Counted from the first letter of the stretch, positions 12,447-31,730 are shown. The stretch: DNA of 33,735 nucleotides from Candidatus Magasanikbacteria bacterium RIFOXYD12_FULL_33_17 (GCA_001783255.1 MFRB01000100.1:14653-48387); one strand, 5' to 3'. Notes: generated from the letters alone by a model not told the origin. A program made the numbers and translations.

Positions 12447-12508
12447 AAAATTTTTCTAAAACAACTATTTATACTTTCTTTAAACATTATTATTTTCTGC
12501 ATGATAGA

Positions 12509-12577
12509 TAAATTGAGATAAAGAGATAAAATAGAGATAATAAAAACAATTTTTTATTTCTACTTTATCTCAATTTA
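12509..12577. repeat. 15-bp perfect inverted repeat (TAAATTGAGATAAAG / CTTTATCTCAATTTA) enclosing direct GAGATAA boxes
   Basis: The left arm is 12509-12523 and the right arm is 12563-12577. Between them are aagagataaaa and aatagagataataa, and gatagataaa sits just upstream. The element lies in the 177-nt gap between the Bro-N gene stop and the next pilin gene start. Confidence 0.8.
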
Positions 12578-24810: not shown

Positions 24811-24830
24811 CCTGCCTGCCGGCAGGCAGG
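24811..24830. repeat. 20-nt perfect GC-rich palindrome (CCTGCCTGCC|GGCAGGCAGG); a REP-like candidate
   Basis: It was read directly from the sequence. It sits in a GC-rich island of about 55 nt (24775-24830), 97 nt downstream of the RAYT-like gene stop, within an otherwise AT-rich spacer. Confidence 0.7.
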
Positions 24831-24926: not shown

Positions 24927-25526
24927 TCAATCACCTAGGAATACTTCTTCAACAGGATATTTTATAAAGCACTCGTTTAATCCATCCATTCCAAAACGCT
25001 TAAACCAAGTTGAATTACTGGAATATTTGTAATGAAAAGACTTTTCTAAACTTGTAACTAGGCCATGCTTGAAAGGATTTTTTATTATATAATTGAAATG
25101 CTTCCAAAAGTCAGCTTTGTTTCTGATACAATAATCGAAGTATTGATACCAGATTTTGCGACCAGGAGTGTCATCTTGTTTATTAATTAATAAGCTTGTT
25201 ATAACATGTAGTCTTTTTATAAATTTTACCAACGTACTTTGATATGAAATATTATGATCAGATTTAGGAGTGGTGAACGTAAGTTCGCCCAGTGAACACA
25301 ATATATGATAATGATTATTTAATAAAAACCAACTATAGATTTTTATATTTAATTCTTTTTGTAAATTTTGCAATACTGAAACAAAGATATCCTTCTTTTG
25401 AGATGTACTAAAATATTTTTTACCTTCAAGACAACGCCCTATGATAAAATAATATGCTCCTTCTACATAAATATGATGTGGACGATTTATGTGTTCCTTA
25501 CCATGTTTAATACCATCATTATACAT
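24927..25526 (-). CDS. REP-associated tyrosine transposase-like protein (RAYT / IS200-type Y1 HUH family)
   Basis: I trimmed the track ORF to the ATG at 25524-25526 (MYNDGIKHGKEH...), which is preceded by a GGGGG Shine-Dalgarno-like run 6 nt upstream. The HUH motif is NNHYHIL. The C-terminal motif KIWYQYFDYCIRNKADFWKHFNYIIKNPFKHGLV matches the Y...IR...Y(I/V)..NP.K.GLV signature of RAYT/COG1943 proteins. Confidence 0.8.
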   Translation of the reverse strand: MYNDGIKHGKEHINRPHHIYVEGAYYFIIGRCLEGKKYFSTSQKKDIFVSVLQNLQKELNIKIYSWFLLNNHYHILCSLGELTFTTPKSDHNISYQSTLVKFIKRLHVITSLLINKQDDTPGRKIWYQYFDYCIRNKADFWKHFNYIIKNPFKHGLVTSLEKSFHYKYSSNSTWFKRFGMDGLNECFIKYPVEEVFLGD

Positions 25527-25582
25527 AATTAACCCCCTAATTATAAACTCAGCAAACTTACGTTTGCCACTCCTACAAAATA

Positions 25583-26728
25583 TCACTTCACCAACATCTC
25601 TAAAAATTCTCTAGCTGTTTTATCCCAATTGAATTTATCTTTTTGGGAGAAACAAACATTGTCTTTTTTATTTTTTATAACTTCTAGCAAAGAATTTTTT
25701 AATTCTATAATATTATGTGGATTAACCAACTTCACACCATCATCCACAATTTCTGACAAAGATGAACGGTTACTAGTAATAACAGGCACTTGCGAAATCA
25801 AAGCCTCCAAGACAGGAAAACCAAAACCTTCATACAAACTAGGATAAACAAATAGCTCAGCTAATTTGTAAAGAGCAGGTTTATCTTCAGCATCAACATA
25901 ACCAATATAATTGACTCCCCTAGTATTATCGATACTAGAGATTATTTTGTCATATTTCCAACCACGTGTACCAGCAATTACTAGATGTATCTTTTTATTT
26001 ATCAAATTTGATTTACGATAAGCATCTATAATAGACAAAATATTTTTACGAGGCTCAAGAGTACCTAAGAAAAAGATAAATTTCTCTGGTAAATTGTATT
26101 TACACTTTAATTTTTCTCTATCAATATTTTGTGACAAAAATTGTAAAAATTTTTTACTAATTCCTGGATACAAAACTTTGATAGAATTAGGATTAAGATG
26201 ATAGACATCTACTAAATCATTTTTGGTATTTTGCGATGGCGTAAAAACAAAATGAGCTTTGTGAACCTGTTGTCTAGTCTTGATAAGACTATGCCACAAT
26301 AACATTTTTTTACTAAAACAACTTGGTAAAAATTCAAAACTCAAATCATGCACAGTCAAAACATGTTTCGTATCTTTTGATAAATTGGTAAAATTAAAAT
26401 TTGGTGAAAACCAATAATCTAATCTATCTACTCTTGTGCTTGTTAATTTTTTATTTACCTGACTTTGCAATAATTTATCCAAATTAAAAATTTTTAATAA
26501 CAATAATATATTAAAGATCTTATTTGGAAATTTCGTAGCTACAAAATGAACATTCGCCTGTAGCCAATTTGGCAAACCATCTCTAACATCTTTGAAAGAA
26601 TTATAGAACAAAAAATAATTATTTTCTTTATCCAAAGCAAAAAGACTATCCAAAAGCTCATAAGTATACTCACCTACTCCTGTACGTTTTTTGTCAGTCA
26701 GACTACGGATGTCAATTGCAATATTCAT
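25583..26728 (-). CDS. Glycosyltransferase, family 4
   Basis: The track ORF begins at TTG (26809). I trimmed it to the ATG at 26726-26728 (MNIAIDIRSL..KRTGVGEY), which aligns with the N-terminus of the paralog at 23658-24767. The C-terminal motif is FVYPSLYEGFGFPVLEA. Confidence 0.85.
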   Translation of the reverse strand: MNIAIDIRSLTDKKRTGVGEYTYELLDSLFALDKENNYFLFYNSFKDVRDGLPNWLQANVHFVATKFPNKIFNILLLLKIFNLDKLLQSQVNKKLTSTRVDRLDYWFSPNFNFTNLSKDTKHVLTVHDLSFEFLPSCFSKKMLLWHSLIKTRQQVHKAHFVFTPSQNTKNDLVDVYHLNPNSIKVLYPGISKKFLQFLSQNIDREKLKCKYNLPEKFIFFLGTLEPRKNILSIIDAYRKSNLINKKIHLVIAGTRGWKYDKIISSIDNTRGVNYIGYVDAEDKPALYKLAELFVYPSLYEGFGFPVLEALISQVPVITSNRSSLSEIVDDGVKLVNPHNIIELKNSLLEVIKNKKDNVCFSQKDKFNWDKTAREFLEMLVK

Positions 26729-26905: not shown

Positions 26906-28021
26906 TTAAAGATCACAACGATTCATCTCAGACAAAAAATCAATATAATGTTTTTCCACATAATCCTTAATTCTTTCTTTGAACTTCTTTTCATCAAAAC
27001 GAATAACTTGTTCACGAATTTTGACACTATCCCAAGTATATTTATCAAAATTAATTACAGTATCAAAAAGCGTTTCCCAATCTTGTTTATAAAAAAACAA
27101 ACCACTTATACCAGGAACAACAGTCTCTGTCACACCACCAACACCATAAGCTATAACAGGACGTCCAGAGGCCATAGACTCTATTGGTGTAATACCAAAA
27201 TCTTCTACCTGAGGATGAATAAAAGCCTTAGCTTTACTCAAAATTTCTGATTTTTCTTTATCACTGATACGACCTAAAAATTCTATATTACCCTTGGCTA
27301 CTTTTTTCAAACTTTCCAAACCAGGGCCATCACCAAAAATTTTCAATTTAAAACCAAGACGATTGAAAGCTTGCACTACAAGATCAAAACGTTTGTAATT
27401 AACAATACGTCCACCAGTCACAAAATAATTACCAACTTCTTTACTAATAAAAAACTTATCCAAATCTACAGGAGGATAAATAACATCACTTTTACAACGG
27501 TAATACTTTTTTATTCTTTTCAAAACTGTGTGAGAATTAGCTATGAAATTATCCACTCTATCTACACTATTTTTGTCCCAAATACGCAATTTGTGGATAA
27601 GCCGAGGCAAAAATAATTTAATCAAAAAATTATATTTCAAATCTTGAATATATTCGTGTGTGTCAGACCAAAGATAACGAGTTGGTGTATGACAATAAGA
27701 AATATGTAAGCCATCCTCTTTGGTCAAAATTCCTTTTGCAAAAGCACTAGTTGAAGACAATACTACATCAAATTCACTCAAATCATGTTTTTCAGTAGCA
27801 ATTGGCATAAGTGGCAAATACCACTGATATTTGTTTTTAACAAAAGGTAACTTTGATAAAAATGATTCTCTGATATCAGCATTTACAAAACTATCTATTT
27901 TTTTCTTATCATGAAACAAAACAAAAATTGGCGCTTCAGGCCATATTTCATGAAACGATTGCAAAACTCTTTCAGCTCCCCCATCTTGTGAAAGATAATC
28001 ATGTACTAGTGCTATTTTCAT
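26906..28021 (-). CDS. Glycosyltransferase, family 4
   Basis: 371 aa. Motifs are MKIALVHDYLSQDGGAERV and AFIHPQVEDFGITPIESMASGRPVIA. Confidence 0.85.
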   Translation of the reverse strand: MKIALVHDYLSQDGGAERVLQSFHEIWPEAPIFVLFHDKKKIDSFVNADIRESFLSKLPFVKNKYQWYLPLMPIATEKHDLSEFDVVLSSTSAFAKGILTKEDGLHISYCHTPTRYLWSDTHEYIQDLKYNFLIKLFLPRLIHKLRIWDKNSVDRVDNFIANSHTVLKRIKKYYRCKSDVIYPPVDLDKFFISKEVGNYFVTGGRIVNYKRFDLVVQAFNRLGFKLKIFGDGPGLESLKKVAKGNIEFLGRISDKEKSEILSKAKAFIHPQVEDFGITPIESMASGRPVIAYGVGGVTETVVPGISGLFFYKQDWETLFDTVINFDKYTWDSVKIREQVIRFDEKKFKERIKDYVEKHYIDFLSEMNRCDL

Positions 28022-28034
28022 AATTCAAATTCTT

Positions 28035-28132
28035 GAAATGCTAGAAAGGCTGAAAATGCTTAAAAGGCTTTGTCCAAATTTACTATGTAAGCATTTCCAG
28101 CCTTTCTGGCATTTTAGGCCTTTCAGGCCTTT
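28035..28132. repeat. Inverted array of nine phased 9-nt units (4 left, 5 right) forming a long imperfect hairpin between two polysaccharide genes
   Basis: The left units on the plus strand are gaaatgcta gaaaggctg aaaatgctt aaaaggctt (28035-28070). The spacer is 17 nt. The right units are taagcattt ccagccttt ctggcattt taggccttt caggccttt (28088-28132). Arms 28035-28061 and 28089-28115 pair at 26 of 27 positions, counting G-U pairs, on the plus-strand reading. The last unit touches the stop codon of the sugar transferase gene. Confidence 0.85.
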
Positions 28133-29550
28133 TAAAGTACTTTTCTCTTTCTAAAAATAATAAAAGGAGTCTTGATAAAAATAATAATGTCTAAATACAA
28201 ACTCCATTTTTCTATATAAAAAATATCCAATTTCATTTCTTCTTCAAACGACAAATCACTACGTCCAGAAATCTGTGATAATCCGGTAATACCAGGTTTC
28301 AAGACAAAGACATCAGGATATTTATCAGCATATTTCTCTACTTCTCTTGGTTGATGTGGACGTGGTCCGACAATACTCATTTCACCTTTCAAAACATTGA
28401 AAAATTGTGGCAACTCATCGATACTAACACGACGAATAAATTTACCAAAAGGTGTGACACGTGGATCATTTTCAATTTTGTAAATCGGTCCTTTTTTACT
28501 ATTATTTTTATTAATCAATTCTTTTTCTTTTTTCTCAGCCTCTTCACCAGATTTAACGAATTGACTGCCTGTACAATCTTGTTGATACATCGAACGAAAT
28601 TTCAAAGTAAAAAATTTTCTACCACGAATACCAACACGTTCATTTTTGTAAATAATCGGGCGACCAGTTTCTAGCAAAATAATCAAACTAGTCAAAAGCG
28701 TAATTGGACTAATAATAATCAAAATAATCACACTCATAATAATATCAAAAATTCTTTTGGAAATTCTACCCCAGCCATCAAGAGAGGTCTTTCTCAATTC
28801 CACAATTGGAATACCTGCAAGAGTAAAAACTGTCATATTGGTAGAATAAGTAGAAAAAACATCGGCTGAATATTTGAAAACGATATGATTTCTATCACAA
28901 AAATATTTCAATTGCAATGTTTCTTCTTCATTAGCACGAGGATTTACAAAAATAATTTCATTCAAATTTAAAGACTCTAATTCTTTACTTATTTTTTTGT
29001 CATAATTATCATAAACTTTGATAATCTTATAACCCAATCTTTTGTTATTTTGCAAAGTATCTACAATAATTTTACTAATACTTTCTGAACCAATCACTAC
29101 CACACGACGCAAACCAAAACCTAAACGATATAATATAGACTTCAAACCTCTCACCAAAAATCTACCAAAAATAACATAGACCATCGCAAAAATCCAACTA
29201 GAAACAATCAAAAATCTAGAATCAAACAAAGTACCAGAAAGAACAATATAAAGGGCCACAACAGACAGGCCAACAAAACAAGCTGAAATTACTTTGGCCA
29301 AATCCTTAGCAAAACGACGATTTGGATTGACAGAATAAAGACCAAGCAAAGCAAAAATAAAAATCCAAACAACAGCAAAAATACCAACAACATTCAAAAA
29401 ACCCCAAAGACTTATACCAAAAATAACTGGTTTCAAAGCTATAGCCCAATCACTAAAACGCAATGAATAGGCACTAAAACCAGCTAAAACAAGCATCAAA
29501 AAATCAATTGGTACTTGTAATAACATAAGTAAAATTTCCGAACGTTTCAT
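28132..29550 (-). CDS. Polyprenyl-phosphate sugar phosphotransferase (bacterial sugar transferase, WbaP/WcaJ-like initiating enzyme)
   Basis: 472 aa with four to five N-terminal TM helices. The C-terminal domain contains KRIFDIIMSVIILIIISPITLL, FTLKFRSM, DELPQFFNVLKGEMSIVGPRP and KPGITGLSQISGRSD, which are hallmark motifs of the Bac_transf family. Confidence 0.9.
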   Translation of the reverse strand: MKRSEILLMLLQVPIDFLMLVLAGFSAYSLRFSDWAIALKPVIFGISLWGFLNVVGIFAVVWIFIFALLGLYSVNPNRRFAKDLAKVISACFVGLSVVALYIVLSGTLFDSRFLIVSSWIFAMVYVIFGRFLVRGLKSILYRLGFGLRRVVVIGSESISKIIVDTLQNNKRLGYKIIKVYDNYDKKISKELESLNLNEIIFVNPRANEEETLQLKYFCDRNHIVFKYSADVFSTYSTNMTVFTLAGIPIVELRKTSLDGWGRISKRIFDIIMSVIILIIISPITLLTSLIILLETGRPIIYKNERVGIRGRKFFTLKFRSMYQQDCTGSQFVKSGEEAEKKEKELINKNNSKKGPIYKIENDPRVTPFGKFIRRVSIDELPQFFNVLKGEMSIVGPRPHQPREVEKYADKYPDVFVLKPGITGLSQISGRSDLSFEEEMKLDIFYIEKWSLYLDIIIFIKTPFIIFRKRKVL

Positions 29551-29679: not shown

Positions 29680-29687
29680 CTTAATTA

Positions 29688-30259
29688 TTCATTCTACATT
29701 TATAAGCCGAATTCTGTACACCTGCGCTAAAGCTTCGGAGTACAAGTAATCTACTAAATAACGTATGATTAACTTGTCAGCTAAAGCTTTAAGTATGCTT
29801 GACTTGTCAGCCAAAGCTTCAGCGTAGGCTGATGATCATTTATCTAGACCTATAATTGCTTATAGGCTCAAACGAGCTAACTTTTCGAAACGATAAATCG
29901 CAACGCTGCTCTTTCTTCAGATAGGGTTTACCACGGCATCTCATCACTAAGAGCCGAAGCTTGTAACCATTTGTCAATTGTGCAAATGATATCAAACTAC
30001 TTTTCACCTTTCCCTCACCCGCCGAAGCTTTAGCGAAGGCTGGGTCCGTGTTTGATACACGTATCCGCCTCCGCCAAGGCTCTGGCGGACGAAGTAGTAT
30101 TGTCTCTGTGGCACTTTCCCGCCCAATATTCTTACGAATAAAGAGGGTGGACGTTATCCACTACCTTTGTCTCCACTCTTCGAGAAGAGTGTTAGGAAGT
30201 TCGGACTTTCCTATTAGTCACAATTAAGTAACCAATCGATCACCAAATGTAAAATGAAT
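29688..30259 (-). ncRNA. rnpB: RNase P RNA (bacterial), unusually long at about 570 nt
   Basis: The minus strand contains AGGAAAGTCCGAAC (complement of 30199-30212, CR-I/P4 5' strand), GGGAAAGTGCCACAGAGAC, GCCGTGGTAAACCC, CTAGATAAATGATC and ACAGAATTCGGCTTATA (complement of 29701-29717, CR-V/P4 3' strand). These appear in the same order as in E. coli M1 RNA. P1 is CATTTTACATTT (30245-30256) paired with AAATGTAGAATG (29690-29701). P2 is GGTGATC (30238-30244) paired with GATCATC (29831-29837). A P8-like hairpin GTGGA-TAACG-TCCAC and a GNRA hairpin TATTC-GTAA-GAATA are present. The region is a GC-rich island with no ORF, and it has its own promoter and terminator. The ends are approximate. Confidence 0.85.
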
Positions 30260-30305: not shown

Positions 30306-31472
30306 TTATTCAAAAGAAAAACTGCCATAATGAGAAATAATATCATCATATATTTCTTCTCTAGTTTTTTCAGGATGCCTCAAGTTTACCATATAAGCAA
30401 CATCTTCTTCAATTTCGTGATATTCAGCCTCCACATCACCATAAATGAGACCTTGTATGGAATCTAAAAGACCCAGACTACTAGCTATAATATTATTTTG
30501 ACTACCTTCATAAATATCCAAATATAAAGAATTCAAAATCCAAAAATAAGATTTTTTATCATCTTTCTCTATACCAGTTGCAAAATCATCAAAACCATAC
30601 GACTTAGCAAGACGTACCATCGCTATTTTATCACCATAATTTATAGAAGCACATTGCAAAAGGTTAAAACCATCTTTATAATTATCTTCACGTAAATATC
30701 TCACACCTAAAGCTTCCAGATATTCACCAATTTCATCATAAAATTCTGTTGATCTTATTTTTTCTTCCAAAACATCATTGGATAATTTATTTAAGTTATT
30801 CCTATAATCCAAATTTTTCTGTTTTTCAGAATCAGAGACTTCTTCAAATAGATCATAAATTAAAACTAAAGGTTCTTTTTTACAATAATCATTGTATATC
30901 TCCAAGTTTGAATTTATTTCTTTAGTATATTTATCCAAAATATCTTGTGATACATAAGTATAAATAGACAAACAATCATCAGCTTTAACATTAAAAACAA
31001 AATTTTTCCCTGTATTTTGTTCAATATAAGAATAAATCAAATCTATATTTTGATTCAAAATTTCTTTAGAAAAAGAATCATAACAAGTATCATATACTAA
31101 ATTATTAGTTATGACATCCTTGTCGTCATCATTAAAAACGCCTTCACTAATTATATAATGATATTTTATAGAATTGTCCTCTGCTGTAATGTCAATGGTA
31201 GTAGTAAATTCATCCAAACGAGCAGGTAATTCAAAATCAATTTTCAACTTATCAACTAACCCCGCAATATATTCTTTATTTTCCTTTGAAGATATATTTT
31301 GTACATTACCTTCGTCTTTAGGTTTATTAGCCAAATACCAATAAAAAAAATAAATGCCAATTATAAACAAGAATACCAAAAATATTAAGAACTTAAATTT
31401 TCTTCCCCTTTTCTTTGAAGGTGTCCCCGTTTCTAAAATTTTATCTTCTGTAAGATTATTTTGGTATTCCAT
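30306..31472 (-). CDS. Hypothetical single-pass membrane protein
   Basis: I trimmed the track ORF to the ATG at 31470-31472 (MEYQNNLTEDK...), because the upstream extension reads through the tRNA gene. The TM helix is FKFLIFLVFLFIIGIYFFYWYL. The rest is acidic and Asn/Tyr-rich. A weak Sel1/TPR-like stretch near the C-terminus (GDKIAMVRLAKSYGFDDFATGIEKDDKKSYFW) is only suggestive. Confidence 0.6.
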   Translation of the reverse strand: MEYQNNLTEDKILETGTPSKKRGRKFKFLIFLVFLFIIGIYFFYWYLANKPKDEGNVQNISSKENKEYIAGLVDKLKIDFELPARLDEFTTTIDITAEDNSIKYHYIISEGVFNDDDKDVITNNLVYDTCYDSFSKEILNQNIDLIYSYIEQNTGKNFVFNVKADDCLSIYTYVSQDILDKYTKEINSNLEIYNDYCKKEPLVLIYDLFEEVSDSEKQKNLDYRNNLNKLSNDVLEEKIRSTEFYDEIGEYLEALGVRYLREDNYKDGFNLLQCASINYGDKIAMVRLAKSYGFDDFATGIEKDDKKSYFWILNSLYLDIYEGSQNNIIASSLGLLDSIQGLIYGDVEAEYHEIEEDVAYMVNLRHPEKTREEIYDDIISHYGSFSFE

Positions 31473-31522
31473 AGAACATACTATTAATCTAAAAAGATCC
31501 CAAGCAATCCTTATTTTTATAG

Positions 31523-31604
31523 TGTCGAAGGGGGGACTCGAACCCCCACGCCCTTGCGAGCCTAACACCTCAAGCTAGTGTGTATACCATTCCACCACTC
31601 CGAC
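31523..31604 (-). tRNA. tRNA-Leu (anticodon GAG), class II with a long variable arm and no encoded CCA
   Basis: I folded it by hand. The acceptor stem is GTCGGAG/CTTCGAC with one G-U pair. The D stem is 3 bp with GG in the loop. The anticodon stem is CTAGC/GTTAG with loop TTGAGGT (anticodon GAG, G37). The variable arm is GCTC-GCAA-GGGC. The T arm is GGGGG-TTCGAGT-CCCCC. The discriminator is A. Confidence 0.9.
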
Positions 31605-31730
31605 GTTTAAAAGACACTGATTGCACTGATTTTTTTAGATTACACAGAAAATTTTATCAGTGTAATCTTTTTTAATCCGTGTAACTTGTCCGCCGTAGTT
31701 CTATGAAATAAGAACGAAGGAGGATCAGTG

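Follow-up and report, generated by a model that had tools for sequence, protein, structure and literature searches.

The analyzed 33,735-nt stretch of DNA (hereafter, the window) belongs to a Candidatus Magasanikbacteria (Patescibacteria) MAG of 1.02 Mb (134 contigs, 32% G+C, about 90% complete). In it, the 110-nt gap between the genes for a polyprenyl-phosphate sugar transferase and a GT4 glycosyltransferase is filled by two opposed arrays of 9-nt units, which raises the question of whether this is a regulatory signal of the operon or an element of a different origin. The initial annotation described nine such units in two opposed arms, and this is borne out by reading of the sequence: at 28035-28132, four AAAKGCYWR units face five YWRGCMTTT units in a strict 9-nt phase. 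On the plus strand, the AAAKGC cores are located at 28036, 28045, 28054, and 28063, and the GCMTTT cores at 28091, 28100, 28109, 28118, and 28127, with a spacing of exactly 9 nt within each arm. The left units read, from 28035 onward, GAAATGCTA, GAAAGGCTG, AAAATGCTT, and AAAAGGCTT, and are followed by 17 nt; the right units, up to 28132, are (TA)AGCATTT, CCAGCCTTT, CTGGCATTT, TAGGCCTTT, and CAGGCCTTT. The two-unit pattern GCMTTTNNNGCMTTT has 7 matches in the window, all of them within this gap, compared to 0.03 expected from shuffled sequences. Tandem Repeats Finder reports periods of both 9 and 18 in the right arm, which confirms the alternation of GCA and GCC versions and, with it, the 18-nt super-repeat proposed earlier. 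The last array unit shares one base with the TAA stop codon of the sugar transferase (28134-28132), and the GT4 start codon occupies 28021-28019 on the minus strand (Table 1).

The two arms are predicted by RNAfold to form a stable hairpin on either strand, with free energies of -44.5 kcal/mol for the minus (mRNA) strand and -46.0 kcal/mol for the plus strand; the corresponding z-scores are -5.9 and -6.6, and 0 of 200 shuffled sequences folds as well. The best helix takes three units from each arm and leaves the fourth left unit inside the loop, and the two outermost units of the right arm either form a separate 6-bp mini-hairpin or stay single-stranded. Thus, the long helix and the 17 nt between the arms given in the initial annotation both stand, but the loop of the best fold comprises 25 nt (28063-28087), not 17, and the stem consists of 26 bp with one mismatch. 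The search of Rfam with the array returned nothing at the gathering score, the only matches being to generic long hairpins (miRNA precursors) far below the threshold. An intrinsic terminator was considered and discarded: the consensus scan reports none at the array, which has the 25-nt loop and the tail GCAUUUCAAGAAUUUG. A separate promoter-like site for the GT4 gene was not found either. Formation of a G-quadruplex, which takes four tracts of at least three Gs, is impossible for the AAAGGC unit, which contains GG at most and no G-tracts. Finally, AAAGG/CCUUU could be read as a Shine-Dalgarno sequence facing an anti-Shine-Dalgarno sequence, an idea that we abandoned because other families of array units show no such resemblance.

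Table 1 Features of the sugar transferase-GT4 junction (window coordinates)
Feature	Position	Strand	Description
5' arm on the operon mRNA	28088-28132	-	Five tandem 9-nt units (AAAKGCYWR on the minus strand); begins at the sugar transferase stop codon
3' arm on the operon mRNA	28035-28070	-	Four tandem units (YWRGCMTTT on the minus strand); ends 14 nt ahead of the GT4 start codon
Main helix	28036-28114		28036-28062 pairs with 28088-28114; 26 bp, one mismatch (28042/28108); RNAfold on both strands and inverted-repeat search
Optional mini-hairpin, 6 bp	28116-28130	-	Outer pair of 5'-arm units; mRNA sequence GGCCUGAAAGGCC (RNAfold)
Upstream gene, polyprenyl-phosphate sugar transferase (Bac_transf)	28132-29550	-	Pfam PF02397, E 1e-62
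Downstream gene, GT4 glycosyltransferase (Glycos_transf_1)	26906-28021	-	Pfam PF00534, E 9e-25; start codon conserved in relatives (orthologous starts)

The array belongs to a dispersed family. The initial annotation called for a search of the genome for the unit, and the two-unit pattern indeed has 84 matches in the 1.02-Mb genome and none in the reversed control. These matches cluster into about 25 loci, of which about two thirds possess both arms; all loci are intergenic, mostly 0-10 nt from a gene end. The order is always the same, an AAAKGC arm, a center of about 10 to about 400 nt, and a GCMTTT arm, with the AAAKGC arrays sitting after stop codons and the GCMTTT arrays before start codons. 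The window copy, at -1 nt from one gene's stop codon and 14 nt from the other gene's start codon, fits this placement of the family at intergenic junctions. Genome-wide, 190 phased units give the consensus YWR-GC[C>A>T]-TTT. In the genus, the three-unit pattern is present in all 7 genomes, with 3-39 matches each; outside it, there are 8 matches in one other genus of the family and 0-2 in the other 53 relatives, the controls all being 0, so that the AAAKGC family is nearly absent beyond the genus.

An example of a complete element is found at C35:7379-7859 of the genome analyzed here (G000), where AAAGGC arms enclose a 123-aa ORF that matches PF05635 (23S_rRNA_IVP) and TIGR02436 ("four helix bundle protein") with an E-value of 1e-35. 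The full-length element thus consists of two inverted arrays (AAAKGCYWR, four to five units each) that enclose a small PF05635 gene. The PF05635 (four-helix-bundle) cargo encodes no transposase or nuclease. The C35 protein shows a weak match to the DGR protein Avd, its PDB relatives 2GSC and 2RLD have five chains each, and Xcc0516 has been described as a homopentamer (PMC4990558, PMC3936711). A shorter element at C29:5094-5302 has an interior that aligns, at about 85%, with the final ~115 nt of the C35 cassette, in direct continuation of the 5' arm. It is thus a remnant of a C35-type gene left by an internal deletion, which apparently ran across a short TTATAAAT repeat.

Within the genus, the AAAGGC-armed cassette (proteins 89-96% identical) occupies two unrelated sites, A and B, so that gene and arms together constitute a unit present in more than one place. 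At site A, between the pyruvate kinase gene pyk and the PEP-synthase-like gene pps, the cassette is intact in G000 and G001 and reduced to a deletion remnant in G003, G004, G005, and G006; at site B, it is intact in G003 and G005, with remnants in G000 and G004. Full cassettes therefore decay in place by internal deletion, until the arms are separated by a short loop. Wherever the junction is assembled, in six genus genomes, site A is filled, so vertical descent combined with decay could explain much of the pattern. The G002 assembly has a contig break at the cassette site, and several AAAGGC arrays are a few hundred bases or less from the end of a contig (G000 contigs C55, C64, C73, C101, C117, and C122); short-read assemblies of such genomes probably break at these repeats.

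A four-helix-bundle protein with 77% identity is paired, in G001 and G004, with the variant 9-nt unit CAAGGCTTA. At the dnaB-ybaB junction, both arms of the G001 hairpin (L222) consist exclusively of this variant, all units reading CRAGGCTYA, and five congeners, including the genome analyzed here, have AAAGGC units at the same place, which implies either a concerted change of the arms or their replacement. There is also a rough trend in the genus, with 5-39 matches per genome where an intact close copy of the four-helix-bundle gene is present and 3-8 where it is not. For the AAAGGC arm family, we found neither a target-site duplication nor a clean pair of empty and filled sites. Comparison of the empty and filled states of the window junction (TAA-TT-ATG vs TAA-element-GATTATG) reveals no clear duplication, no clean empty state exists for sites A and B, and the flanks of gap 2 in the genome without arrays could not be aligned. 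Furthermore, a simple picture of insertion as a unit explains neither the solo arms, which occur in this genome without a partner, nor the locus C133:21949-22269, where two arms flank a native 235-nt divergent promoter region that lacks arms in the congeners.

Comparison of the sugar transferase-GT4 gap with its orthologs, also proposed in the initial annotation, shows that the occupant is not conserved. In four relatives (L040, L042, L047, and L049), there is no insert, and the stop and start codons overlap or are 2-13 nt apart; the sugar transferase stop codon of the window is at the same position as in these relatives. Overlapping or adjacent stop and start codons represent the ancestral state of the junction. 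AAAGGC arms are present in the window, L038, and L041, TACGAAA arms in L037, L039, and L055, and gene-less TACTAATnn arms in L043. In another Magasanikbacteria MAG (L046, 5424-5932), near-perfect inverted arms built of the same 9-nt TACTAATnn unit enclose, at the orthologous junction, a 133-aa PDDEXK_3 (GxxExxY) gene (Pfam E 6e-18). In the tree of the transferases, the occupant type flips between sisters, namely, L039 and L038 (support 99/100) and the window and L037 (87/86). The ybaB-recR junction is likewise variable: three genomes have a TAGTTC-armed four-helix-bundle cassette there, and a fourth has a different cassette with a four-helix-bundle gene. Two others carry a gene-less hairpin from another family, and one more carries a GC-rich hairpin. 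Many dispersed copies and absence from relatives were observations that the initial annotation had listed as refuting its reading, and both have materialized, with some 25 loci in the genome and four empty junctions.

Given these findings, the array is most likely what an insertion into the operon has left behind rather than a purpose-built regulatory signal, and we consider it likely that it is, specifically, a gene-less copy of a hairpin-armed, IVS-like cassette that carries a four-helix-bundle gene. The hairpin element itself is probably selfish. Such cassettes would lodge in the few bases between neighboring genes, and the window copy would have either decayed in place or been copied as a miniature. 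The insert may persist because a self-folding sequence at a stop/start junction does little harm; the 26-bp stem on the mRNA might be cut by RNase III, which would be a side effect and not the reason for the existence of the element. The conserved unit motif in inverted orientation suggests that the arms are arrays of recognition sites, for which the most plausible putative binder is the family's own pentameric four-helix-bundle protein, the one encoded at C35. More tentatively, and with doubt prevailing, the four to five units of an arm might be recognition sites for a homopentameric Avd-like protein, one unit per subunit. The cassettes would then be an undescribed kind of selfish element, without a known transposase, that installs, maintains, or copies arm pairs at gene junctions, the gene-less ones in trans. 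If this is the case, the same recognition-array logic would also explain the rRNA IVS, the heptamer arrays of Xanthomonas, Nostoc, and Geobacter, and the PDDEXK_3 (GxxExxY) cassettes.

An alternative, raised in essence in the initial annotation, is that the hairpin is a selected intercistronic RNA device, that is, an RNase III site, a stabilizer of the 3' end of the sugar transferase mRNA, or a structure by which translation of one gene is uncoupled from (or re-coupled to) that of the other. Part of this proposal holds: the fold on the mRNA strand is very stable, so that the stem will form there, the genome has an RNase III gene (rnc, C100:13477-13872), and this type of enzyme cleaves the homologous rRNA IVS stems in vitro (PMC4990558). 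At its base, the stem also draws the GT4 start codon (14 nt off) toward the sugar transferase stop codon; ancestrally, the two codons overlapped or were adjacent. Moreover, the window copy is better paired than the family average, with 10 of the 12 variable positions paired, the best value in its family; this probably reflects youth or chance but could, alternatively, mean that pairing is under selection at this locus. In the family at large, the motif is conserved and the pairing is not. In the AAAGGC family, the four variable positions per unit match between the arms in 56% of the cases in the best register, against a null expectation of 0.564 ± 0.02 obtained by shuffling the unit order. For 72 gene-carrying cassettes, the inter-arm match is 0.843 compared to 0.831 for the null (p = 0.07), and mismatches between the arms are of the G·U type on the sense RNA in 94 cases and of the A·C type in 95. 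Because there is no covariation beyond the unit consensus and no bias toward G·U, the helix is a by-product of the inverted motif arrays, and the helix itself was dropped as the candidate selected feature. The same device would have to be missing from the four relatives with an empty junction and replaced by unrelated hairpins in others, with flips between sister genomes; furthermore, the arms at C133, being on both sides of a divergent promoter region, cannot share one transcript, and there are solo arms. A selected regulatory hairpin is therefore unlikely, given that the junction is not conserved, the arms do not covary, and G·U pairs are not favored, and any effect of the hairpin on the RNA is probably incidental.

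The remaining proposals place the activity at the level of DNA. A protein-binding array, one of the options listed in the initial annotation, is compatible with the evidence and, judging from the sequence, would be somewhat favored because conservation is limited to the unit motif and its inverted orientation. A stronger version, in which the arrays are immobile, operator-like sets of cooperative sites for a trans-acting regulator at many operon junctions, is improbable. It is consistent with the conservation of the unit motif alone rather than the pairing, the three to five units per arm, the placement beside start and stop codons, and the five chains in the crystals of PF05635 proteins; in addition, paired arrays of 7-9-mers (classes 1-3) in Geobacter metallireducens have been annotated as putative sites of global regulators (Aklujkar et al. 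2009; PMC2700814). However, a genome of about 1 Mb has more than 10 unit families, each of which would require its own regulator, the occupancy of orthologous junctions is not conserved, and a pairing of arms and cargo that recurs at two unrelated sites, where it decays in place, behaves as a selfish element, not as a regulon. The initial annotation further suggested that the array is a target or product of the nearby HUH transposase, which would mobilize the arms as single-stranded DNA hairpins in the manner of REP/REPIN elements. The RAYT-like ORF in question (24927-25586), about 2.4 kb from the array, overlaps the upstream GT4 gene and scores 76.9 bits against the NCBIfam model REP_Tyr_transpos, below the cut-off of 80; RAYT-like matches are found in all seven genus genomes, and the element shares with REPs and REPINs the character of a dispersed intergenic palindrome, single or in inverted pairs, in a genome with a RAYT-like gene (PMC3116915, PMC3733652). 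Nevertheless, this explanation is very improbable. Neither of the RAYT-like genes of this genome is flanked by a 9-mer array; the one in the window is instead trailed, at 24811-24830, by a perfect GC-rich palindrome, CCTGCCTGCCGGCAGGCAGG, with 23 copies in the genome. The arms are tandem arrays, not a single imperfect GC-rich palindrome of 20-40 nt, and reading of the array sequence shows no GTAG or CGTC tag. G013 has AAAGGC arrays without a RAYT match, the matches in three genus genomes are weak, with open frames of only 81-123 aa in two of these, and across phyla the arms are consistently tied to a different cargo, the four-helix-bundle protein or PDDEXK_3. The CCTGCCTGCCGGCAGGCAGG family itself, with its conserved flanks (GGGATCC...TTTCTTAA), resembles REP elements or, alternatively, a shared terminator, and two of its copies are inserted inside AAAGGC arms (C12:7069 and C29:1426).

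The association of PF05635 genes with inverted arrays, on which the reading of the window copy as a gene-less cassette draws, extends beyond the AAAGGC family. The genome analyzed here carries ten PF05635 genes with mutual identity of only 24-42%. All eight genes for which both flanks could be assessed have on either side inverted arrays, 24 nt or longer, of tandem 7-9-nt units, and the unit differs for each PF05635 lineage; the ninth gene has 28-nt arms, and the tenth is located at a contig end, with one arm visible. A bracketing inverted repeat of at least 26 nt was found for 7 of the 8 genes compared to 6 of 277 control genes of similar size. Under a strict rule that requires an inverted repeat of at least 22 nt and periodicity of both arms, 15 of 29 loci from other Patescibacteria and 31 of 76 loci from many phyla (Bacteroidota, Planctomycetota, Verrucomicrobiota, Nitrospirota, Desulfobacterota, Omnitrophota, and others) qualify, compared to 2 of 276 controls; both samples comprise the best-scoring homologs and thus overstate the generality. 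Among 81 cassettes, the unit period is 7 in 47 and 8 in 33, and period 9 is rare in this sample; it recurs, nevertheless, in other families of the present genome (GAGATAAAn, CCAGATWAT, ATCCGTGTC, and TACTAATnn). An intergenic scan of the genome revealed many gene-less hairpins of other unit families, for example, at least 10 copies of GGATACGAAATACGAAA; more than 10 unit families coexist in about 1 Mb. Of 101 Patescibacteria genomes sampled, 66 have members of the PF05635/TIGR02436 family, and the copy number reaches 12 in a genome of ~1 Mb. A polarity reminiscent of telomere healing, with a G-rich arm at the 5' side and a C-rich arm at the 3' side, was considered as a general rule and rejected: 74 of 85 sampled cassettes fit, but several families of this genome (CCATTGTn, CACGAnT, and AATTTTCA) have C-rich 5' arms.

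Among the known systems, the ORF-bearing IVS of 23S rRNA in Leptospira and Coxiella, with terminal inverted repeats that form a stem of about 28 bp and a decay-prone PF05635 gene in the loop, have the same layout as the C35 cassette. In the Coxiella burnetii IVS, the 28-bp terminal stem is cut by RNase III, the S23p ORF is decaying, and tandem GACAGAT heptamers occur in variable number (Warrier et al. 2016; PMC4990558); these heptamers lie in the 5' region, and their number varies between strains. The 26-bp helix of the window copy is within the range of the IVS stems (at least about 20 bp). In contrast to the IVS, however, the window copy is inserted not in 23S rRNA (helix 25 or 45) but between the protein-coding Bac_transf and GT4 genes, its gene has been lost (reading of the 25-nt loop shows no PF05635 (S23p) ORF), it is one of about 25 loci in a single genome, and its unit is 9 nt long rather than the usual 7 or 8. 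23S_rRNA_IVP genes wedged between cas genes have also been reported (Zhang et al. 2014; PMC3936711).

The gene-less copies resemble, in turn, the arrays described in Xanthomonas, Nostoc, and Geobacter, which also consist of tandem 7-9-nt units, typically three to five per array, are intergenic, and often form convergent pairs with variable spacing. The GGGAATC arrays of Xanthomonas typically contain four units, amount to 70-75 convergent pairs in each genome, and were taken by their authors to be G-quadruplexes (Rehm et al. 2015; PMC4692102); the GGGGAYT repeats of Nostoc are gene-less paired tandem arrays of the same kind (PMC4692102). In all these arrays, a stop codon shortly precedes the purine-rich array and a start codon shortly follows its complement, a rule that holds here as well. 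The papers on these arrays drew no link to a cargo gene, whereas in the genus analyzed here, such a link, to a four-helix-bundle cassette and its decay, is directly observed. MITEs and Rickettsia palindromic elements are comparable, too, in being short, non-autonomous palindromic derivatives of a longer, gene-carrying element that are tolerated at gene boundaries; they differ from the present family, for which we found no transposase-encoding parent and no clear target-site duplication.

Among the papers retrieved by full-text searches, none draws a connection between gene-less arrays and gene-carrying cassettes. The present analysis adds a single arm family in many copies within a genome, the presence of the same cassette at two sites, the series of decay stages at orthologous sites, the turnover at junctions, and the negative outcome of the covariation and G·U tests. 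The genus ties together gene-less arrays, gene-carrying cassettes, and their decay products. The PF05635/TIGR02436 family is very large, and its function has been unknown since the early 1990s. In genome annotation, arrays of this kind can easily be taken for terminators, REP elements, CRISPR fragments, or riboswitch-like hairpins.

The window contains another inverted hairpin of tandem units, at 12506-12576 in the 177-nt spacer of a pilus operon, with the unit GAGATAAAn and a period of 9; it belongs to a different family with the same architecture. A second kind of armed mini-cassette was noticed in G000. At C12:5457-5822, there is a small gene that matches DUF559 (Vsr-like endonuclease fold), and the genes at C9:6418-6789 and C121:21147-21500 share its motifs by eye; each of the three small genes lies between GC-rich inverted repeats resembling CCCCTAATAGGGGGAG.

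Several further features of the window were recorded. Beside a tRNA gene, a 31-nt inverted repeat at 31621-31684 consists of ATCAGTGT/ATCCGTGT-like units, and direct ATCMGYGT arrays similar to these units are located upstream of dnaB in the congeners L221, L222, and L225; the units are possibly related to DnaA boxes. The class A RNase P RNA at 29687-30255 is 569 nt long compared to the 367 positions of the model and includes a 30-nt tandem duplication at 29763-29819. The tRNA gene on the minus strand (31523-31604) overlaps the first 46 nt of the longest, 420-aa version of an ORF without a family match (30306-31568), the true start of which probably lies further downstream.
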